DNA from: Shigella phage SfIV
Sequence record: KC814930
Reading direction: 5' to 3' (one strand)
DNA: 39,758 nt
Every line of letters begins with the position of its first letter. Position 1 is the stretch's first letter. The translations under genes and the position numbers were made by a program. This document shows, in pieces, positions 10,038 through 23,197 of the stretch. Below the pieces are notes generated by a model. The model was not told where the DNA came from, made no database searches, and saw only the letters and a list, made by a program, of their open reading frames with translations.

Positions 10038-11937
10038 TAATTTTCAGCTGAAAGCCATCATCACCGCTGTTGACAGGCTGTCCGGCCCGCTTAAAGGTAT
10101 GCAGCGTCAGCTTAAGGGATTTCAGAAAGAAGTCTCCAGCCTTGCTCTGGGCGCTGCCGGGGCGGGTACTGCAATAATGGGGGCACTGGCACTCCCTGTA
10201 AAATCAGCCATCACCCTTGAATCGAAGATGGCTGATGTCCGCAAAGTGGTGGACGGTCTGGATACGCCGGATGCGTTTAAGGCCATGACGGAGCAGGTAC
10301 GCGCTTTGTCTACTGAGCTTCCCATGTCTGCAGACGGGATCGCGGAAATTGTGGCGGCTGGCGGTCAGGCCGGGATTGCACGTGATGAACTGATGCAGTT
10401 TGCCACTGATGCGGTGAAGATGGGCGTGGCCTTTGATACCACGGCTGAAGAGTCCGGGCAGATGATGGCCCAGTGGCGTACTGCGTTTAATATGACGCAG
10501 GATGAAGTGGCCGGGCTGGCTGACAAAATCAACTACCTTGGTAATACCGGCCCAGCGAACGCGAAGAAAATCTCCGATATTGTTACGCGTATTGGTCCTT
10601 TAGGTGGTGTTGCAGGTGTGGCTTCCGGCGAAATCGCGGCAATGGGGGCAACCATTGCCGGGATGGGCGTGGAGTCAGAAATTGCCGCCACAGGGGTCAA
10701 GAACTTCATGCTTTCCCTGACCGCGGGAAATTCTGCGACAAAATCGCAGAAACAGGCATTGCGTTTTCTGCGGATCAATCCGAAGAAATTAGCTGCTGAT
10801 ATGCAGAAAGATGCCCGGGGCACCATGCTGTCTGTACTGGATGCGATGGCTAAAGTGCCTAAAGAAAAACAGGCAGCTGTGCTGAATGCCCTGTTCGGGA
10901 AAGAGTCTCTGGGCGCGATAGCACCTCTGCTGACTAACCTTGATTTGTTGCGTACCAACTTCAGGCGGGTTGCGGATTCCCAGCAGTATGGCAGTTCGAT
11001 GCAGAAGGAATATGCTTCGAGGGCAGCGACGACGGAAAACCAGCTTTTACTTCTGCAAAATCAACTTGATGCCATTTCTTCCACGCTGGGGGAAACGTTT
11101 CTTCCTGAGGTTAATGATGGTCTTGAAGCGGTAAAACCGCTCCTTGAGGAAGTGAGAACGTTTGTCCGTGAAAACCCGGAGCTCGTTAAGACCATTGCTA
11201 AAATCGGTCTGGCTTTACTGACAGTGGGGGCCGCTGCAGGCTCTTTGTCCAGAATCATGAAAGTTCTCGGCGGTGTGATGAATATGACGCCTGCTAAGGG
11301 GCTGATTGCTCTTCTGGTTGGTGGCGCTTACCTCATTATTGATAATTGGGAAACCGTAGGCCCTGTCATAAAAAAAGTCTGGCACGTGGTGGATGAAACG
11401 GCGCAGGTGATGGGGGGATGGGAAACTGTTCTGAAAGCGATTGCCCTGTTTATGGCAACCAAATGGGTTGCTGACGTTACCAAATCCATTACCGCAGTGA
11501 CCAGAGAGATGCGTACGCTGGGGAAGGTATCGGCAGAAACGGGATTGATGGGGAAAGGCCGCGGCTTTATCGGGAAGGCCGGGGTATATGGTTTTTTGGG
11601 AACCCTGATGTATGAGCCGGTTAAAGATACTCTGGAAAGTGTTGTTCCTGAAGATACGGTTAACTGGCTGGATAATAAAGGGCTGTTTCTGGCTTCAGAC
11701 TGGACGCCTTTTTTTGATCGTAAAGAGTACGAGCAGTATCAGGCCAGCCTGAGCCAGTACAAACCCAATGTTCCGCTGTTGAATCCATCTTCTTCCATGA
11801 CACAGCACAGCGAGCTGAAAGTCACGTTCGAGAATGCTCCGCTAGGTATGAAGATAATTGATGTACCGGGCAAAGCCGATCCCCTGATGAAAATCACGCA
11901 CGATGTGGGGTATTCCCCTTTTCGTTTTCCACGATAA
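10030..11937 (+). CDS. tail tape measure protein
   Basis: 635 aa, Ala/Gly-rich with long predicted helical segments, directly after the chaperone pair. Confidence 0.85.
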   Translation: MADNFQLKAIITAVDRLSGPLKGMQRQLKGFQKEVSSLALGAAGAGTAIMGALALPVKSAITLESKMADVRKVVDGLDTPDAFKAMTEQVRALSTELPMSADGIAEIVAAGGQAGIARDELMQFATDAVKMGVAFDTTAEESGQMMAQWRTAFNMTQDEVAGLADKINYLGNTGPANAKKISDIVTRIGPLGGVAGVASGEIAAMGATIAGMGVESEIAATGVKNFMLSLTAGNSATKSQKQALRFLRINPKKLAADMQKDARGTMLSVLDAMAKVPKEKQAAVLNALFGKESLGAIAPLLTNLDLLRTNFRRVADSQQYGSSMQKEYASRAATTENQLLLLQNQLDAISSTLGETFLPEVNDGLEAVKPLLEEVRTFVRENPELVKTIAKIGLALLTVGAAAGSLSRIMKVLGGVMNMTPAKGLIALLVGGAYLIIDNWETVGPVIKKVWHVVDETAQVMGGWETVLKAIALFMATKWVADVTKSITAVTREMRTLGKVSAETGLMGKGRGFIGKAGVYGFLGTLMYEPVKDTLESVVPEDTVNWLDNKGLFLASDWTPFFDRKEYEQYQASLSQYKPNVPLLNPSSSMTQHSELKVTFENAPLGMKIIDVPGKADPLMKITHDVGYSPFRFPR

Positions 11938-11961
11938 CGCAGTCCTTTTTGAGGTCAGTCT

Positions 11962-13338
11962 ATGGATTTATCCTCATTTCCCACCCGACCTTCATTACTT
12001 TCGTCGTCTTCAGGCTGGCGTGACAGACTTCAGGACGCGTCATTTCGCGGCGTGCCGTTTAAGGTTGAAGAAGAAAGTGCGGGAACCGGTCGCCGTGTGG
12101 AAACACATGAATACCCGAACCGCGACAAACCCTATACCGAAGACCTGGGGAAAATCACTTTTCGCCCGTCCATCACGGCTTATGTGGTGGGAGATGACTG
12201 CTTTGACCAGCGCGATCGCCTGATTGACGCGCTGAATAAACCCGGTCCCGGCACGCTTGTCCATCCGACATACGGTGAGCTGAAAGTCTGTGTTGACGGA
12301 GAAGTTCGGGTCAGCACATCGAAGAGTGAAGGGCGTATTGTCCGCTTTGACCTGAAGTTTGTCGAAGCGGGAGAACTCTCTTACCCCACATCAGGTGCGG
12401 CGACGGCGCAGACGCTGATGTCATCCTGTTCTGCACTGGATGACTGCATCAGTGACAGCTTCAGCGGTTTCAGTATCGATGGTGTGGCGGATTTCGTGCA
12501 GAACGACGTTATCGGTAATGCCAGCATAATGCTGGGGTATGTTTCTGATGCGATGAAAGTGGTGGATTCTGCCGTATCGGATGCCGCCAGGCTGTTGCAG
12601 GGGGATATCTCGGTACTTCTGCCGCCGCCATCGTCAGGCAAAAATTTCGTTGAGCAGGTGCAGAAAATGTGGCGTACCGGGAAACGCCTTTATGGTAACG
12701 CCAGCGACCTGGTCACCATGATCAAAACGCTTTCCGGTGTCAGCCTCGGCAGCGATCTGCAACCCCGCGGCGTCTGGAAAACGGACAGTAAAACCACCGC
12801 CACGGCGACGCAGCAGCGTAACGTGGTTGCCAGCACCCTTCGTACGACCGCAATCAGCGAAGCGGCGTATGCCGTCACCCGATTGCCTGCGCCAACAACT
12901 TCCGCGGTGATGCAGAATGCCGCAGTGGGGCAGGCAACAACACCCGCGCAGAGCACTTGCTGGCCTTCCGTCACGCATCCGGCACTGAACAATGCACCGG
13001 CGGTGAAAAACACGGTTGACCTGCCGACGTGGGAAGAACTGACTGACATTCGCGACACACTGAATACGGCAATTGATAAGGAGTTGTCCCGTACAACCAG
13101 CGATGCGCTGTTTCTGGCGCTGCGCCGGGTGAAAGCAGATCTGAATGCGGATATCAACACGCGCCTTGAACAGTCTGCACGGATCATTCAGCGCACACCG
13201 GATGAGGTTTTACCCGCGCTGGTGCTGGCGGCGACCTGGTTTGATAACGCGGCGCGTGACGCGGACATTATCCGGCGTAATGCCATTACGCATCCCGGCT
13301 TTGTGCCGGTGATCCCTCTGAAGGTGCCAGTGCAATGA
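11962..13338 (+). CDS. DNA circularization protein (Mu N-like)
   Basis: 458-aa ORF after tape measure and before the baseplate hub, the conserved position in Mu-type tail modules. Confidence 0.7.
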   Translation: MDLSSFPTRPSLLSSSSGWRDRLQDASFRGVPFKVEEESAGTGRRVETHEYPNRDKPYTEDLGKITFRPSITAYVVGDDCFDQRDRLIDALNKPGPGTLVHPTYGELKVCVDGEVRVSTSKSEGRIVRFDLKFVEAGELSYPTSGAATAQTLMSSCSALDDCISDSFSGFSIDGVADFVQNDVIGNASIMLGYVSDAMKVVDSAVSDAARLLQGDISVLLPPPSSGKNFVEQVQKMWRTGKRLYGNASDLVTMIKTLSGVSLGSDLQPRGVWKTDSKTTATATQQRNVVASTLRTTAISEAAYAVTRLPAPTTSAVMQNAAVGQATTPAQSTCWPSVTHPALNNAPAVKNTVDLPTWEELTDIRDTLNTAIDKELSRTTSDALFLALRRVKADLNADINTRLEQSARIIQRTPDEVLPALVLAATWFDNAARDADIIRRNAITHPGFVPVIPLKVPVQ

Positions 13339-15387: not shown

Positions 15388-16432
15388 ATTTCAGCGCCCG
15401 ACGCTGGCAGAAAATATCAGTATGCTCCGTAACGATTTATTCGCCAGGCTGGACGTCAGCGACACGCTCCGGCGCATGGATGAAGACGTGCGGGCAAAGG
15501 TGTATGCGGCGGCGCTGCATACGGTTTACGGTTACATCGATTATCTGGCAATGAACATGCTGCCTGACCTGTGCGATGAGTCCTGGCTGGCGCGACATGC
15601 TGCGATGAAACGGTGTCCGCGCAAGGGGGCCACGGCTGCCAGCGGGTATATGCGCTGGGAAGGTGTCAGCGATGGCCTGAAGGTGACCGCCGGGAGTGTT
15701 ATTCAGCGCGATGACCTGGTGCAGTACACGGCAACTGCCGATGCAACCAGCACCGGTGGTGTCCTGCGCGTGCCGATCGCCTGCTCAAGTGCAGGCGCGG
15801 TCGGTAACGCTGACGACGGTACGTCATTAATCCTGGTCACGCCGGTGAATGGTCTGCCGTCTTCCGGCGTGGCAGATACCCTGACAGGTGGATTTGATAC
15901 TGAAGAGCTGGAAACGTGGCGCGCCCGCGTCATTGAGCGGTATTACTGGACGCCTCAGGGCGGGGCTGACGGGGACTATGTCGTCTGGGCTAAAGAAGTG
16001 CCCGGCATTACCCGCGCATGGACATACCGACACTGGATGGGAACGGGGACTGTCGGTGTGATGATTGCCGGCAGTGACCTGATTAATCCCATTCCGGAAG
16101 AATCAACGGAAACGGCGGCAAGACAACATATCGGGCCACTGGCCCCGGTGGCAGGCTCTGATTTGTATGTATTCAGGCCGGTGGCGCATAAAGTGGATTT
16201 TCATATCCGTGTGACGCCGGACACACCGGAAATACGGGCTGCCATTACCGCCGAGTTGCGTTCGTTCCTGCTGCGTGATGGTTATCCGCAGGGAGAACTG
16301 AAGGTGTCACGTATCAGTGAAGCGATTTCCGGTGCGAACGGGGAATACAGCCATCAGTTGCTTGCACCGGCGGACAATATCTCCATTGCAAAAAATGAAC
16401 TGGCGGTACTGGGGACGATTTCATGGACGTGA
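15374..16432 (+). CDS. baseplate J-like protein
   Basis: 352 aa, conserved position. Confidence 0.75.
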
Positions 16433-17007
16433 CAAACGATGATTACATCCGTCTGTTGTCGGCACTGTTGCCACCCGGTCCGGCGTGGTCAGCCAGAGAT
16501 CCGGCGATTGCCGGTGCGGCACCGTCATTAACCCGCGTTCATCAGCGTGCGGATGCCCTGATGCGGGAGCTGGATCCGCACACCACCACTGAACTGATAA
16601 ACCGCTGGGAGCGTCTGTGCGGTCTGCCGGATGAATGTATTCCCGCAGGGACACAGACCCTTCGCCAGCGTCAGCAACGACTGGATGCGAAGGTTAACCT
16701 GGCGGGCGGCATCAATGAGGATTTTTACCTTGCACAGCTTGCTGCCCTGGGCAGACCAGACGCTACCATCACGCGATACGACAAAAGCACGTTCACCTGC
16801 TCATCTGCCTGTACTGACGCGGTGAATGCGCCGGAATGGCGGTATTACTGGCAGGTCAACATGCCAGTCGCCACCAACACCACCTGGATGACATGTGGCG
16901 ATCCCTGTGATTCCGCGCTGCGCTTCTGGGGGGACACCGTTGTCGAGTGTGTGCTTAACAAACTCTGCCCGTCGCATACCTATGTGATTTTTAAATATCC
17001 GGAGTAA
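16423..17007 (+). CDS. tail protein (Mu gp48-like)
   Basis: 194 aa, last gene of the baseplate block before the tail fibre. Confidence 0.65.
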
Positions 17008-17010
17008 TCC

Positions 17011-17661
17011 ATGCATCGTATAGACACGAAAACCGCGCAGAAGGATAAGTTCGGCGCGGGTAAGAACGGTTTTACCCGTGGTAACCCCCAGACTGGCACG
17101 CCTGCCACCGATCTGGATGATGACTACTTTGACATGTTGCAGGAGGAGCTTTGCAGCGTGGTGGAGGCATCCGGTGCCAGCCTGGAGAAGGGGCGGCACG
17201 ATCAGTTGCTTACCGCACTTCGCGCGCTGCTGTTAAGCCGCAAGAATCCGTTTGGCGATATCAAATCGGATGGCACGGTGAAAACGGCTCTCGAAAACCT
17301 TGGTTTGGGAGAAGCAGCTAAAAGGAATGTAGGTACAGGGGCGAATCAGATACCTGATATGAGCCTGTTCGCGTCAAGTAATACCGCAACGGCTGCTGCG
17401 CAAAAATTTCCGTCTGGATTAATTTTACAGTGCGGTCAGTTGAATGGCTCCCCTAATGTATCTTCAACATACGGGATGAGGTTCCCGATGACATTCTCAA
17501 GAGTCCTTGCTGTCACAGTTACATTGAACGTTACTGGCGCGGCTGGGCAGCCGACTGTATCGGCGACAAATGTCCATAACACTGGATTTAATATTACTGT
17601 GTCGCCCGGTTCAGGATATGGTGCATCTTCTGATGCGTATTACATTGCAATGGGATATTAA
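17011..17661 (+). CDS. tail fibre protein (short)
   Basis: 216 aa, immediately followed by a tail-fibre assembly gene; unusually short for a tail fibre. Confidence 0.65.
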
Positions 17662-17665
17662 CGAA

Positions 17666-18085
17666 ATGTCATATTTTTATTCTGCATCGACAAACGGATT
17701 TTATTCGACTGAATTTCACGGCACCAATATTCCTGATGATGCAGTGGAAATCTCGGAATCAGAGTGGAAAACACTGATTAACTCACAGAGTGTAACAAAA
17801 ATGATTACCTGTGGTGAGAACGGTCATCCTGTCATTGTTGACCGTCCTTCTCCAACACCAGAACAATTAGCCTTAATAAATGATGAAAAGAAATCTGCAC
17901 TGATAGCAGAGGCAACGAATGTAATAGCGCCGCTTCAGGATGCGGTTGATTTAGGTATGGCAACAGATGATGAAACGAAACTGTTACTGGCATGGAAAAA
18001 ATATCGCGTGCTATTGATGCGTGTTAATACTTCAACAGCACTCGATATTGAATGGCCTACGCCTCCGGCAGTTCAGGCCAGATGA
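17666..18085 (+). CDS. tail fibre assembly protein (Tfa)
   Basis: ATG at 17666; C-terminus [28 protein letters not shown] is the Tfa signature; N-terminal part ...[14 protein letters not shown] is also typical. Confidence 0.8.
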
Positions 18086-18569
18086 CATCCGGCGCGGTGC
18101 TGGTATCTGTTGCCGTCACCGCGTCAATGTAATCCAGCACAGCGTTAAGGCGGGTTGTTTCTGCCTGCGTCAGTTTACGTCCGGCCTGCAATTTCAGCTG
18201 AATCAGACTGATGGAAGCCATAGCAGCATCAACCAGAGACTGGCGCTGTACTTCTGCTGCACCTACTGCGGCGCTATGCTGTGCCTCAGTATCCGTCACC
18301 CATTTCTCACCATCCCATTTATCATATGGCGTTAACGGGGCGATAGTGGTTGTATTTTCAGGGTAATCACCCAGAGCTGTGATTTCTTTCGATTCTCCTG
18401 TTTCGGTGCTATAAACGTTTTCACCGCGATGGTCTGGCACATATTCCCATGAGTTAAAATCTGCAGAACGGCAAATTGCATAACCAGCTTTATATGAGCC
18501 AGGAGCATCTAAACAGGAATATGCAGGGATACCGACACCCACAGCAAGATATTCAGTTGATGCAGAAAT
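18057..18569 (-). pseudogene. second tail fibre assembly gene, 5'-truncated by IS insertion
   Basis: Minus-strand reading frame ends ...[17 protein letters not shown] (Tfa signature), convergent with the plus-strand tfa; its 5' end runs into the IS3-family element at 18570 and the first ~45 codons of the track ORF are IS-derived. Confidence 0.7.
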
Positions 18570-18588
18570 ATGAATCGCCACAGATAAT

Positions 18589-19401
18589 CTAGACACTTCC
18601 GAGCCGCTGATAATATTGGTTTTCGTATTCAGTTGGTGGCATATGATCACTCGAACCATGCCGACGCTTACTGTTATAAAACATTTCGATGTAATCAAAA
18701 ATATCACCGCGAGCTTCTTCTCGCGTTCCGTAGATCTTTTTCTTTATCCGTTCACGTTTCAGTAGCTGGAAAAAACTTTCTGCGACTGCGTTGTCATGAC
18801 AGTTACCGCGACGGCTCATACTGCCCTCCAGCCCGTGTGATTTCAGGAACGACTGCCACTCATAGCTTGTGTACTGACTGCCTTGATCAGAATGAACCAG
18901 CACCTGCTTTTGAGGATTACGTCGCCACACGGCCATCAGAAGTGCATTCAGGACAATATCCTTTGTCATCCGGGGCTGCATTGACCAGCCAATAACTTTG
19001 CGCGAGAACAGGTCAACAACCACAGCCAGATACAGCCAGCCTTCGTGAGTCCGGATGTAGGTGATGTCCGTTACCCAACGCTCATCCGGTGCTTCCGAGT
19101 TGAACTGCCGCTGGAGCCTGTTGGGCGTCACGATGCTGGTTTCACCCTTACGTGCCCGTGGGCTACGGTACCCGACCTGAGCCCTTATCCCGGCACGCTT
19201 CATCAGTCGCCAGACACGGTTAACTCCGCACTGTTGTCCGGTATCCCGCAGGTCGAGGTGGATCTTGCGATAACCATAAACGCAACCCGACTCCAGCCAG
19301 AACTGCTTTATCAGCCCCGTCAGCCTCAGGTCAGCATGATGCCGCCGTGAATCCGGCTGCTGAAGCCAGGCGTAAAAACCACTCGGATGCACATCCAGCA
19401 C
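18589..19401 (-). CDS. IS3-family transposase OrfB (DDE catalytic domain)
   Basis: 270 aa; its frame is open upstream into the orfA 3' end, as expected for an OrfAB frameshift fusion. Confidence 0.85.
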   Translation of the reverse strand: MLDVHPSGFYAWLQQPDSRRHHADLRLTGLIKQFWLESGCVYGYRKIHLDLRDTGQQCGVNRVWRLMKRAGIRAQVGYRSPRARKGETSIVTPNRLQRQFNSEAPDERWVTDITYIRTHEGWLYLAVVVDLFSRKVIGWSMQPRMTKDIVLNALLMAVWRRNPQKQVLVHSDQGSQYTSYEWQSFLKSHGLEGSMSRRGNCHDNAVAESFFQLLKRERIKKKIYGTREEARGDIFDYIEMFYNSKRRHGSSDHMPPTEYENQYYQRLGSV

Positions 19402-19438
19402 CCGACAAAGCAGTCGGACAGGCCAGCAATGGGTGTTG

Positions 19439-19741
19439 TCACGGATAAAGGCGTACCTCAGTCGGACAGCTTTGCGAAGTACGCCGCTGTAGATTCAATA
19501 TGTCCCGTTCGTCGGTAACCCGCTTCAGCTCTTTCTGGAGGCGTCGGATCTCAGCCTGAGCGTCTGACTGGACTTTATTGGTTGAGGAATCCGGGCCATA
19601 TGCCTTTATCCAGGCATAAAGACTGTGGGTGGTGATACCGAGACGTGTTGCCACGCTGGAAACAGAATGGCCGCGATCAACAACCTGTTTTACCGCTTCA
19701 ATTTTAAACTCTTCGGGATAACGCTTACCGCTCATGGGCAC
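19439..19741 (-). CDS. IS3-family transposase OrfA (HTH)
   Basis: 100-aa ORF, N-terminal HTH-like segment, upstream of orfB within the IS. Confidence 0.8.
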   Translation of the reverse strand: MPMSGKRYPEEFKIEAVKQVVDRGHSVSSVATRLGITTHSLYAWIKAYGPDSSTNKVQSDAQAEIRRLQKELKRVTDERDILNLQRRTSQSCPTEVRLYP

Positions 19742-19904
19742 CTCTCTTTAAGTCATCTTAAATGACTCTGAGGTGTCTGTTAAACCTGTGGCGATTCATT
19801 ATTAACTCTAATTTTAACAATAATTCCAGCCAGTACCCCGTCAGCCAGGTTGTAGTATTGGGCGGTAATTATTCTTACCCGGAAGGGGTTAAGATGACAC
19901 TAGA

Positions 19905-20373
19905 GATGCGCGGTAATACCTGCCTTGGGGTTGGCTATACGGCAAGCGCATCGAGGCCAGATGTTAGTATAAGTGGATATTCCGCCAATGAGCAGGCTAT
20001 TTTTATCGATTATGATAACTTATGGATCCCATCACAATCACCGGTTGTGGATGCTACTGTTAAATGGAAAAGCTCTCCTGACTTCGCTTTTGGTGTGAGC
20101 GTTGTTGGTGCGACTGGAGCAATGGGAAACAGGAGAAATATACTCAGTGTTACAAGGGGAGCGACTGGGGTTTATACAGTAAATGCAAATCATGATATAG
20201 CAAACGTGGCTGTAGAAATAACTACTGTAGGGGTACCAGGATACGGAATAATAGGTGGTTATCCTACCGCAAACTCATTCGTTGTAAGGATGTACAATAC
20301 TGCAGGCGCTCCCACTGACATAGATTTCATAGCATTAGGAAAAGACTATAGAGCAAGATTTAACGCTACATAA
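19905..20373 (+). CDS. hypothetical protein
   Basis: ORF 19762..20373 begins inside the IS; the first ATG outside the IS is at 19905 with a purine-rich stretch upstream. Followed by a strong hairpin. Confidence 0.45.
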
Positions 20374-20374
20374 A

Positions 20375-20405
20375 ATCCCCCCCCCAGGATAACTGTGGGG
20401 GGGAT
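20375..20405. terminator. bidirectional stem-loop between convergent genes
   Basis: atccccccccc...gggggggat with about 9-bp G/C arms, between the 19905..20373 (+) gene and gtrC (-). Confidence 0.5.
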
Positions 20406-20407
20406 GT

Positions 20408-21721
20408 TTACTTATAAATTCCTGATGCTACCTTATCCAATATAATTGATAGTACTATAAATATCATTAGGTCAAATGAAAAGTTCATTGCAAAAAGATG
20501 CTTGTCTAAATCTCTATATCCTTCGCCAATGAAGCTAATATAAAACTGAGAGATGCTAAAAGCAGATAATGTAAAGATTGCAACAGAATATTTTTTTCGG
20601 ATAAAAATCAGTGATGCTATCATGGCTATAAATGCAACAGGAATCCTCACAGTTGATAGAGCAGAGTCTTTTATTTTTTGAACTTCATTCAAAAAAACAC
20701 TCTTACTTATTATTAGCTTATTTTCCTTGAAGACATGGAAGTAATCTTCAGTTAATTGGGTTCGAACTCCAGAATCAAAAGGAAGAAGGAGGAACATGGA
20801 AGGTTGCTTTAGCATCAAAAGCAAAGAATCCTTCAATCCCCTTTCTTTATTTTTTGCGAAGCAGGCTCCAGCATCTTTTGTGGTAACAGCTCCCTTATCC
20901 AAATCAAATTTATTTCCCCATGCATCAACACCAATGCATTCGTCCACGGCCCACGATGGATTTTCTTTTCCATTGCTTTTATTGTATAGCAAAGTCCCGA
21001 AATAAAGGGAGTGATAGCTGTTATATTTAGTTGCGCTTGGCGAGAAAAATGAAAATGACAATGCAATTATCGTCGCAATTACCATAGCTAAGTGAAATTT
21101 TTTATCTCTTATGTCAATAAATATTATTGAAATTAAAGAAATTAAAATGGGAATATAGAAGAACTGAGATTTTGATGTGGCGATTAGCGCTGCGCATGCA
21201 ACTAGTAATACTTTATCAAACCTTGATATTTCTTTTTTAAGAATTATATAAGTAATTACCGGAAGTAAAGTGATTACTATTTGCTCCTGATAAAATGCTG
21301 TGAATTGTGAAAGTATGGAAGGAGTAAATAGCAATAATGCTGATACCGGAAATAAAAGATAAGAATATTTTTTATTGTTTATTTCTACAAATAGTTTATA
21401 TAACGCACAAATATACACGATTTTGGAAAGAGATGACCATAACCTAAGATCAAATGTGTGTGTGAATATCGATATAACATAAGCGTATAAATAAAGAATA
21501 TAACTAAATGAGCTTTTATACTCATAGTTCACAATTGAACTGAAATTTTCCTTCAGGGTATAAAGTAATGTGCCATCATGTGAGAACTGTCTGATCCCAT
21601 TCATGAAAGGTGTTATGGCCCTATCGAAGTCGCCATTATTCATCATCCATATGTCAATTGACTCCTTGCACAGTAATGCACAAAAAATTGCAAGGAATAC
21701 ATACCTTATTCTTTCAGCCAT
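20408..21721 (-). CDS. serotype-specific O-antigen glucosyltransferase (GtrC-type, polytopic membrane protein)
   Basis: 437 aa, strongly hydrophobic with many predicted TM segments, very AT-rich, immediately downstream of gtrB and gtrA. Confidence 0.7.
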   Translation of the reverse strand: MAERIRYVFLAIFCALLCKESIDIWMMNNGDFDRAITPFMNGIRQFSHDGTLLYTLKENFSSIVNYEYKSSFSYILYLYAYVISIFTHTFDLRLWSSLSKIVYICALYKLFVEINNKKYSYLLFPVSALLLFTPSILSQFTAFYQEQIVITLLPVITYIILKKEISRFDKVLLVACAALIATSKSQFFYIPILISLISIIFIDIRDKKFHLAMVIATIIALSFSFFSPSATKYNSYHSLYFGTLLYNKSNGKENPSWAVDECIGVDAWGNKFDLDKGAVTTKDAGACFAKNKERGLKDSLLLMLKQPSMFLLLPFDSGVRTQLTEDYFHVFKENKLIISKSVFLNEVQKIKDSALSTVRIPVAFIAMIASLIFIRKKYSVAIFTLSAFSISQFYISFIGEGYRDLDKHLFAMNFSFDLMIFIVLSIILDKVASGIYK

Positions 21722-21722
21722 T

Positions 21723-22637
21723 TTATTTCTCTTTTAACAAGTAGCGAGGTCTCTGTTTAACTTCGGTATAAATCCGGCCAATGTACTCGCCCAAAACTCC
21801 GATACCAATGAGCTGCACACCACCGAGAAAAAGTATTGATACCAGCAATGATGGATAACCGCGCACAGGATTCCCGAATGCAAGCGTATCAATGATCATC
21901 CAGGCACCGTACAGGAAAGCCAGGCCTGCAACGAACAGGCCAATGTACGTCCACATGCGTAACGGAAATGTTGAGAAGCTGGTAATCCCTTCAAGCGCCA
22001 GGTTCCAGAGCTTCCAGCCATTAAACTTAGTGCTGCCAGCAACACGCTCAGCGCGAGCATATTCAACAACATCTGTACTCCCACCAACCCAGCTCAATAC
22101 TCCTTTCATGAACAGGTTGCGTTCTGGTAATAATTTAATGTTTTCCACAACTCCGCGAGACATTAGTCGGAAATCGCCGACGTTCTCCTCAATCTTTGGA
22201 TTGCTTATTTTATTGTGAAGTTTATAGAACCACTCAGCAGTCATGCGCTTCAGTCTTCCGTCTGTAGAACGGTCTGAGCGCTTAGCCAGTACCATATCAG
22301 CACCTGCCTGCCACTTTTCAATAAGATGAGGGATAACCTCAATCGGGTCCTGCAGATCGACATCAATAGGAATTACAGCATCGCCGCTTGCATGGTCTAA
22401 CCCTGCAAATAAGGCTGGTTCTTTACCAAAGTTGCGTGTAAATGACAGCGGAACAACTAGCGGGTCTGAAACAGCCAGCGCGTTAATAATTGACTCTGTG
22501 GCATCTTTACTTCCGTCATTTATGAATACAATTTCTACTTCATATGGCTTCAACTCTTGGAATTCACGTACCGTTTTATAGAAAACAGGTATCGCTTCTT
22601 CTTCATTGAAGACAGGAACGACAAGAGATATTTTCAT
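21723..22637 (-). CDS. gtrB: bactoprenol glucosyltransferase
   Basis: 304 aa; N-terminal GT2 features ([26 protein letters not shown]) and C-terminal TM helices. Confidence 0.85.
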
Positions 22638-22996
22638 TTCGCATCCCTAAAGACAATGAACTTTGAATAGACGAAACCGCACACCAGACTGATGGCGGAG
22701 AAGGTGATAAGAGTGACTATTGGAGGAAGTGAGCATTTATCAGCTGCCCAACCAACAATCACACTCAATATTCCCATAAATCCCACGTATAACATGTAGC
22801 GCATCGCTGTAGTCGATGCTTTGAATGTGAATCTTGCATTCGCGAAGAAGCTAAAGCTCACAGCCACTACGAAACCTGTGAAGTTTGCCAGAGCCTGACT
22901 GGTATGTGCGGCATAGATACATACACCAAAAACCACCCAGTGTATAAGTGTGTTCAGCACACCTATAGATGTGTACTTTACAAATAACTTTAACAT
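22634..22996 (-). CDS. gtrA: bactoprenol-linked glucose translocase (flippase)
   Basis: 120 aa, four predicted TM helices, overlaps the gtrB start. Confidence 0.8.
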
Positions 22997-23197
22997 TTAT
23001 TTAATCAATGAGCTCTGAAAGGCATGAAGTCTATCATCCAAGTCTCAATTGATCGATACTTGCTATGTCTGATGAGACAAAACTGAGACACATAAGGCCT
23101 CACAATGGCTTGCAAGGCTTTACATGTTTTGATGTGGTGGGACGTGTGAGCGCAGTGTTGATGGGGTAATGCTTTGAATTAGAATCGGATTCTTATA

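Follow-up and report, generated by a model that had tools for sequence, protein, structure and literature searches.

A probable remnant of a Pin/Gin-type invertible host-range segment in Shigella phage SfIV, next to a podovirus tailspike fragment and the gtr cassette

Positions 17011–20373 of Shigella phage SfIV (sequence record KC814930) were analysed within the whole stretch of 39,758 nucleotides (nt), here called the window. The region contains a short tail fibre gene and its tail fibre assembly gene (tfa1) on the plus strand, a second, truncated assembly gene (tfa2) that converges on them from the minus strand, an insertion sequence (IS), and a piece of a foreign gene adjacent to the gtrIV cassette. 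With a probability of about 0.85, positions 17011–18570 are what is left of a Pin/Gin-type invertible host-range segment, namely its proximal half; the complete segment would be ancestral to the SfV-like phages.

SfIV is an inducible, plaque-forming myovirus (PMC3851460). The gene order in the window is that of a cos-linear SfV-like phage, i.e., Mu-type baseplate genes, fibre, gtr cluster and int. Over positions 16400–18029 the nt sequence identity is 99.0% to SfI, 98.5% to SfII and 95.4% to SfV. A prophage of Escherichia coli CFSAN061762 is 99.7% identical over positions 17000–21800, IS included. The features of the fibre region are as follows.

16423–17007, plus strand: Mu gp48/YmfQ-type baseplate gene (Pfam Phage_Mu_Gp48, E 2.1e-26), the final conserved tail gene ahead of the fibre
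17011–17661, plus strand: tail fibre gene, 216 amino acids (aa) (Pfam Gp53-like_C at aa 132–216, E 1.8e-13)
17011 to about 17288, plus strand: Sc, the constant part of the fibre gene
17289–17314, no strand assigned: orphan Pin/Gin-type crossover site, CTCTCGAAAACC-TT-GGTTTGGGAGAA, within the fibre gene and coding for ...LENLGLGE...
17315–17661, plus strand: Sv, the variable, receptor-binding part with the gp53-like C domain
17666–18085, plus strand: tfa1, intact, chaperone for the expressed Sv (Caudo_TAP, E 1.9e-31); the true start is the ATG at 17666
18057–18570, minus strand: tfa2 relic, the open reading frame (ORF) published as ORF-22, 5'-truncated (Caudo_TAP, E 2e-32), with the start and the first ~30 codons gone

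The fibre gene, its crossover site and the convergent tfa genes

The N-terminal 100 aa of the fibre are 98–100% identical across the best 80 loci in IMG/VR, with varying C-termini. The SfIV fibre differs from the fibres of SfI, SfII and SfV at 4, 10 and 14 aa, respectively. The baseplate gene at 16423–17007 shows 96–99% nt identity to SfI, SfII, SfV and phage SKA5. A crossover site of the Pin/Gin family is located at the boundary between the constant and variable parts of the fibre gene, where an invertible segment has one. The exact sequence AAACCNNGGTTT occurs once in the window, at positions 17289–17314, and the core AAACCTTGGTTT is also unique (positions 17295–17306). Comparison of positions 17300–17315 with TTGGTTTGGGAGAAGG, the repeat that experiments place at the ends of the P segment of e14, which is inverted by Pin (PMC12529663), shows agreement at 15 of 16 bases. 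Homology to prophages of E. coli G3/10 and LD27-1 begins at 17289–17291, i.e., at the crossover site. In G3/10, LD27-1 and SKA5 this 26-mer is accompanied by a second site in inverted orientation.

Repeat and motif searches of the window revealed this single site and no credible second, inverted one. A weak inverted match to the Pin repeat is present at positions 17846–17861 on the minus strand, within tfa1. It has three mismatches and resembles one half-site only. It was rejected as a second site, as the GGTTT core and one half-site are absent and ~0.24 such matches are expected by chance per window. A literature text search with the site sequence as a string gave irrelevant matches only.

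No serine invertase gene is detected. A Gin probe used in tblastn has no match better than E = 1 in the whole window (39.8 kb); as a positive control, it found the recombinase fragment in record L008 at E 1e-14. The SKA5 invertase (187 aa) has no tblastn match in the whole window at E <= 0.1, and this query is sensitive enough to find an invertase fragment in SfII (E 7e-9). In known systems the Fis-dependent recombinational enhancer resides in the invertase gene. Three variants of the alternative fibre tip (Sv') also have no tblastn match in the window. Thus the second tip of an invertible segment is missing: Sv and tfa1 are intact, tfa2 is short by ~30 codons and Sv' is absent. A preliminary description of this region, made from the sequence alone, had reported neither an invertase gene nor an alternative fibre C-terminal gene and had proposed that the phage may be locked into one fibre specificity. 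Both absences are confirmed by these searches. With one site and no invertase, the SfIV segment cannot invert and would provide a single fibre type, so that the fibre is predicted to be locked as Sc-Sv with tfa1. Since SfIV is viable and plaque-forming (PMC3851460), the expressed fibre and tfa1 work.

The tfa1 and tfa2 products both carry the Caudo_TAP domain (PF02413), with 109.4 and 112.5 bits against a gathering cut-off of 22.1. The two genes overlap tail to tail by 29 nt, and this is equal to the overlap in intact segments of relatives. The short fibre gene with its tfa on the plus strand and the convergent second tfa are all present as first described, including the C-terminal ending of tfa2, but tfa2 extends to 18570 and not to 18569. 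The tfa2 product aligns with residues 30–200 of the intact 200-aa TfaE of G3/10 at 93% aa identity and covers positions 36–203 of 239 in phrog_105. Its homology to intact genes ends exactly where the IS begins. The tfa1 gene is common to SfI, SfII and SfV up to position 18029 only, and among the Sf phages compared, SfIV alone keeps the ancestral tfa1 3' end that overlaps tfa2. Past ...LLMRV (window positions 18000–18085 compared with 7600–7680 in L001–L003), SfI and SfV have one version of the 3' end and SfII has another. From these sequences, deletions or replacements appear to have cut into tfa1 in the other Sf phages, which was then patched with other tfa tails.

Intact, flipped and eroded relatives

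Escherichia phage SKA5 (OR670062) is 96.2% identical to SfIV over positions 16000–17361, which comprise the baseplate genes and the fibre N-terminus. The shared part is followed in SKA5 by Sv, a tfa gene on the plus strand, a second tfa gene (tfa') and a Collar-domain Sv' on the minus strand, a second site, a 187-aa invertase gene, dinI and int. The second site is in inverted orientation, TTCTCCCAAACC-AA-CCTTTCAAATAT, and the invertase has the Pfam domains Resolvase and HTH_7.

An SfV-like prophage of E. coli G3/10 contains the Sv-tfa1-tfa2 block of SfIV (1281 nt, 95.8% identity) in the silent, flipped orientation. Its fibre constant part, 96.5% identical to that of SfIV, is fused to another tip, which is followed by tfaE, and the segment is bounded at both ends by inverted sites. 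The P2-like prophage of LD27-1 has the same Sv-tfa1-tfa2 block at 95.9% identity, together with Sv' and a recombinase fragment. No silent orientation of the SfIV Sv-tfa1 block is found among the best 80 IMG/VR loci; the flipped example, G3/10, is from the set of E. coli genomes.

The population sample consists of 54 informative IMG/VR loci (from L018–L097) with a fibre N-terminus of 98–100% aa identity and at least 4.5 kb of downstream sequence. The invertase is full-length in 15 of the 54 and present only as fragments in 22; both inverted sites are found in 25 of the 54. The fragments are often limited to the first ~37 aa, and decay is common also in loci that retain an intact four-gene segment with its two sites. 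Common decay of the invertase in cis would fit inversion supplied in trans by other prophages, as PinQ and PinR do for e14. The Pin-type site, the intact segment of SKA5, the flipped block of G3/10 and these population data all favour the decayed invertible host-range segment proposed in the preliminary description, and they come from the repeat search and the comparison with related phages that it had outlined.

Relatives that carry gtr genes display various remnants. In SfII (NC_021857, L002), positions 9588–9704 encode 39 residues of a Pin-type invertase (aa 74–112, 54% identity, E 7e-9); this fragment is located between an acyltransferase gene and ISSfl9. The same fragment is present in the gtr-carrying IMG/VR loci L046, L049, L054, L062, L079 and L082. 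The tfaS gene of prophage CPS-53 in E. coli K-12 retains residues 91–199 of tfa2, with no IS there. In seven IMG/VR loci, 41–45 codons of the second tfa are left adjoining gtr genes, without this IS. SfI and SfV have no tfa2 remnant, and even the tfa1 3' end is replaced. The varied remnants suggest that gtr-carrying lineages eroded the segment repeatedly and with different end points. Since the same half is lost in relatives free of the IS, the IS is not a necessary cause of the loss. The preliminary description had taken the segment to be truncated by the IS and had regarded IS-free relatives with a single orientation and no second fibre gene as evidence against its reading. The IS does sit at the break, and CPS-53, the seven loci, SfI, SfII and SfV are formally such relatives. 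But because intact relatives exist, the IS-free losses weaken only the causal role of the IS, which is unproven.

The insertion sequence and the tailspike fragment

To the right of tfa2, the IS, the foreign gene fragment and the gtr genes are arranged as follows.

18571–19798, minus strand: IS3-family element, ISEhe3-like, 1228 bp, from terminal inverted repeats and Pfam domains
18589–19401, minus strand: IS orfB (rve, rve_2, rve_3)
19439–19741, minus strand: IS orfA (HTH_Tnp_1)
19799–20373, plus strand: tailspike gene fragment, P22-like podovirus type, comprising the 3'-terminal ~190 codons out of 681, from protein and contig homology
19894–20373, plus strand: 159-aa ORF inside the tailspike fragment, 'hypothetical' in RefSeq, with ribosome-binding site (RBS) AAGGGG N5 ATG
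20372–20408, no strand assigned: G+C-rich hairpin (C8/G7), inverted repeat I6, with 16-nt arms of 88% complementarity, between the convergent tailspike fragment and gtrIV
20408–21721, minus strand: gtrIV, as identified in PMC3851460
21723–22637, minus strand: gtrB (ORF)
22634–22996, minus strand: gtrA (ORF); the gtr cassette at 20408–22996 is for O-antigen glucosylation

The IS has imperfect terminal inverted repeats, TGAATCGCCACAG..., ending in TG...CA. These repeats and the presence of orfA with a helix-turn-helix domain and orfB with a DDE (rve) domain are those of the IS3 family, as first described; the name IS911-like and the boundaries 18570–19799 are replaced by ISEhe3, the name given by the SfIV authors (PMC3851460), and by 18571–19798. 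Many copies in E. coli are 98.9–99.7% identical to this element. The slippery motif A AAA AAG, for a -1 frameshift, is present in four other copies from this species. In SfIV, a cluster of substitutions and a 1-bp deletion at positions 19488–19496 leave GAATCTACAG in place of this motif, and the CFSAN061762 copy is identical. As a result, orfB has moved from the -1 to the +1 frame with respect to orfA. With the motif lost and orfB at +1, production of the OrfAB transposase is improbable, and the SfIV copy may be immobile. The PGAP annotation of the IS still reads 'programmed frameshift'.

Positions 19799–20373 were included in the preliminary description but were left uninterpreted. The plus-strand frame is open from the end of the IS through 20373, and the 159-aa ORF within it carries no annotation in the SfIV paper (PMC3851460). 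This ORF is 100% identical over all of its 159 aa to the C-terminus of P0001, a 267-aa protein. The contigs that encode P0001 are those of P22-like podoviruses, with gp7, gp20 and gp16 homologues, Mnt/Arc, and a tailspike with the P22/Sf6 head-binding domain. Directly after the tailspike come a gtr-specific gene, gtrB, gtrA and an integrase gene. Positions 19809–23121 of the window are 95.1% identical, without interruption, to 9080–12391 of one such contig (L010), and the same contiguity is found in two IMG/VR contigs (L098 and L099). In the latter two the tailspike is a single intact 681-aa ORF, with a Head_binding domain (E 3.6e-43) and matches to the Sf6 and P22 tailspike N-termini in PDB. 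On this homology, 19799–20373 is identified as a previously unannotated tailspike fragment, contiguous with gtrIV-gtrB-gtrA as in the podovirus contigs. It aligns with positions 321–568 of 568 in phrog_17420 (tail protein). The SfIV piece has no head-binding domain and is a fragment, not a complete P22-like tailspike. Pfam and PDB sequence searches with the fragment gave no match, and in a BLASTP comparison of the 203-aa ORF with the fibre the similarity is not significant.

In the Logan contig L010 (positions 7600–9644) the tailspike is split by a frameshift into ORFs of 421 and 267 aa. Positions 4759–6804 of L098 and L099 are 98.6–99.97% identical to L010 and are not split; thus the split in L010 is due either to mutation or to faulty assembly. 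In the T7-like Providencia phage EPr2 (OM256482, L017 positions 5001–5795), the last 265 aa of the tail fibre are 79.6% identical to the tailspike C-terminus, and from this similarity the receptor-binding module appears to be common to different podovirus families and genera.

The joint between the IS and the tailspike fragment is common to SfIV and prophages of E. coli LD93-1 and NCTC9967. The 159-aa ORF is unchanged in these two strains even though their prophage remnants are heavily deleted. The minus strand of the right flank ("YYNLADG...") was considered as the 5' end of tfa2 and rejected, as there is no real homology past the IS and the plus strand encodes the tailspike. Simple insertion of the IS into tfa2 was likewise rejected: tfa2 homology is not resumed beyond the IS, and the tailspike is found there. 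The hairpin at 20372–20408 is probably a bidirectional terminator that was inherited with the podovirus block. The podovirus type that probably supplied the gtr-side flank has no tfa gene, and its integrase is IntS (argW)-type, 98.7% identical to K-12 IntS.

History of the locus and comparison with known systems

In a working device, a serine invertase would recombine two inverted 26-bp sites, the one inside the fibre gene and one beside the invertase gene. Inversion would let Sv (with tfa1) and Sv' (with tfa2) take turns as the tip fused to the constant N-terminus. SfIV would retain the expressed orientation only, with Sc, site, Sv and tfa1 intact and functional, and would have lost the tfa2 start and ~30 codons, Sv', the distal site, the invertase and dinI. 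Probably, the region distal to the fibre was exchanged between an SfV-like myovirus that had the full segment and a podovirus that carried gtrIV. On the left, the joint now occupied by the IS would be illegitimate, with tfa2 cut at about codon 30 and the tailspike at about codon 490. Through this joint the serotype-4a gtr cassette would have entered the myovirus backbone, together with a small part of the adjacent tailspike gene. No special mechanism is required at the right joint because gtrB-gtrA is 94–95% identical across SfIV, SfI, SfV and the podovirus, and ordinary homologous recombination in the conserved gtrB/gtrA could suffice.

From the sequences on its two sides, the IS appears to mark the myovirus/podovirus recombination joint. 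Three routes to the joint fit the present data: adjacent deletion mediated by the IS, recombination between two IS copies, and later insertion of the IS. An origin of the hybrid from tandem prophages at thrW was considered and is not supported. The donor type has an argW (IntS-type) integrase, and the homology stops at 23121, before the position of a thrW-type phage attachment site (attP) according to the SfI annotation.

Several observations weigh against an eroded ancestral segment broken at this joint. An IS-free ancestor of the exact joint was not found, and the junction 24- and 25-mers are both absent from IMG/VR. With no parental junction found, the order of events given above is tentative. 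The IS is flanked by ATA and TTA with no 3-bp duplication, but this is uninformative since five other copies have no clean duplication, and for this reason target-site duplication was dropped as a test of IS-mediated deletion. The tfa2 relic has 170 codons with no internal stop or frameshift. Its ratio of nonsynonymous to synonymous substitution rates (dN/dS) against intact alleles is 0.15–0.20, compared with 0.14 between intact alleles; either the truncation of tfa2 is therefore recent, or tfa2 is still under constraint. In addition, tfa2 is downstream of the IS transposase genes on the same strand, with a GTG at 18581, and expression is possible. Its reading frame continues for 45 further codons into the IS, and a promoter-like site at 19783–19755 in the IS could read through the transposase genes into tfa2.

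The alternative that survives best, though still unlikely, is that the distal half had already gone by the time of gtr capture and that the IS arrived later, at or near the old joint, as a bystander. The losses of Sv' and invertase beside gtr in CPS-53, the seven IMG/VR loci, SfI and SfV, all without this IS, are consistent with such a history, as is the apparent age of the IS/tailspike joint, which occurs in SfIV and in three lineages of E. coli, LD93-1 and NCTC9967 among them. However, both flanking genes are cut exactly at the ends of the IS and are mutually unrelated, so a later insertion would have to coincide with the tfa2/tailspike joint. The missing target duplication also stands against it but, as noted, is uninformative.

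A more doubtful proposal concerns present activity of the remnants. The orphan Pin-type site, which is shared by SfIV, SfI, SfII, SfV and CPS-53, might be a substrate for Pin-family invertases acting in trans from other prophages, which could swap Sv-tfa blocks between unrelated prophages by site-specific recombination, and in addition the relics (the tailspike C-terminus with its RBS and ATG at 19894, and tfa2) might be expressed in lysogens and block the adsorption of other phages, in the manner reported for e14 StfE2. If true, swapping in trans would account for the exact start, at the 26-mer, of the homology shared by SfV-like and P2-like prophages.

A functional role for tfa2 is less probable again. 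The SfIV authors described ORF-22 as an extra tail fibre assembly protein unique to this phage, and suggested that it widens or alters host range; it is not found in SfI, SfII and SfV, and the host ranges of these phages differ (PMC3851460). The frame of 170 Tfa codons that is open for 45 more into the IS, the low dN/dS, the orientation shared with the transposase genes and the promoter-like site all speak for a function. In opposition to this, the protein has lost its first ~30 residues and the gene its native start, and the cognate tip Sv' is absent. The relatives have ever shorter relics (the K-12 tfaS pseudogene, the 41–45-codon stubs), as under neutral erosion, and SfI, SfII and SfV are infectious without ORF-22. 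In known systems (Mu U/U', e14 tfaE/tfaP) each Tfa works on the adjacently encoded fibre tip. The published reading would thus be corrected: ORF-22 is what remains, in truncated form, of a gene from the silent half of an invertible segment, and is unlikely to be a host-range chaperone.

It is very improbable that the convergent tfa pair is unrelated to an invertible segment and that tfa2 came independently, e.g., with the IS or the gtr module. The single tfa in each of SfI, SfII and SfV and the frequent exchange of tfa genes between phages would allow it. But Sv-tfa1-tfa2 is contiguous over 1281 nt and 95.8–95.9% identical to the interior of complete segments, the block starts exactly at the crossover site with the same 29-nt tail-to-tail overlap, and the gtr-side flank is from a podovirus without tfa. 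Continued inversion by a Pin-type invertase of a host or prophage, acting in trans with a cryptic second site, is the least credible of all: the e14 segment does respond in trans to PinQ, PinR and PinE (PMC12529663), but the weak inverted match at 17846–17861 is a chance-level candidate without core and one half-site, its position within tfa1 means that inversion would wreck the fibre and tfa1, and no other candidate site was found in the window.

An eroded invertible segment in SfIV implies that the SfV-like family ancestrally had a Pin-type host-range switch and that gtr-carrying lineages lost it repeatedly. The locus would also provide a concrete example of a serotype-converting gtr cassette that moved from a P22-like podovirus to a Mu-tailed myovirus, with the joint marked by an IS. 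These results are useful for phage annotation and for the study of Shigella serotype evolution. They imply no new mechanism; the locus is best described as a decayed form of a well-known system, an evolutionary fossil and not a working device.

Among the closest known systems is the P segment of e14 with PinE in E. coli K-12 (stfP-tfaP / tfaE-stfE). It has a similar constant N-terminus, a site within the gene, convergent tfa genes and gp53-like tips; its crossover sequence is the 15/16 match to TTGGTTTGGGAGAAGG, and the tfa2 homologue of G3/10 is annotated tfaE. In e14, both sites, both tips and pinE are present and inversion is shown experimentally; SfIV retains a single site and a single tip, its second tfa is truncated and an invertase gene is absent. 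The G segment of Mu (Gin) and the C segment of P1 (Cin) are also those of myoviruses, with Mu-like baseplate genes (gp45–48) directly upstream. The Sc/Sv-U/U'-Sv' architecture is found in intact relatives of SfIV (SKA5), with the invertase just outside the segment. SfIV differs from these in its short fibre (216 aa) and other tips, and it keeps only Sc-Sv-U and most of U'. SKA5 and similar SfV-like prophages share the baseplate genes and fibre constant part at 96%, and the proximal 26-bp site is identical. However, they have other Sv/Sv' tips, a complete segment with invertase, dinI and int, and no gtr cassette.

On the gtr side, CPS-53 (KpLE1) of K-12, with gtrS-yodE-tfaS'-yfdK-yfdL', has a tail module of this family beside gtrABC, the same site (L009 positions 5884–5909), and a convergent tfa pair of which the second is 5'-truncated, with no Sv' and no invertase. 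It differs in that its joint lacks an IS, the truncation of tfaS is at residue ~91 and not ~30, integration is at argW, and the prophage is otherwise defunct while SfIV is infectious. The IS resembles ISEhe3 of the IS3 family in its 1.23-kb length, TG...CA ends, orfA (HTH), orfB (DDE rve) and ~99% identity to E. coli copies, but the SfIV copy is without A AAA AAG and 1 bp, has orfB at +1 and not -1, and is not IS911. The intact 681-aa homologue of the gene to the right of the IS is similar to the P22/Sf6 tailspikes (gp9/gp14), with a P22 head-binding domain and a position adjoining gtr as in serotype-converting podoviruses. SfIV keeps the C-terminal ~190 codons with no head-binding domain, a fragment that a myovirus would be unable to use.

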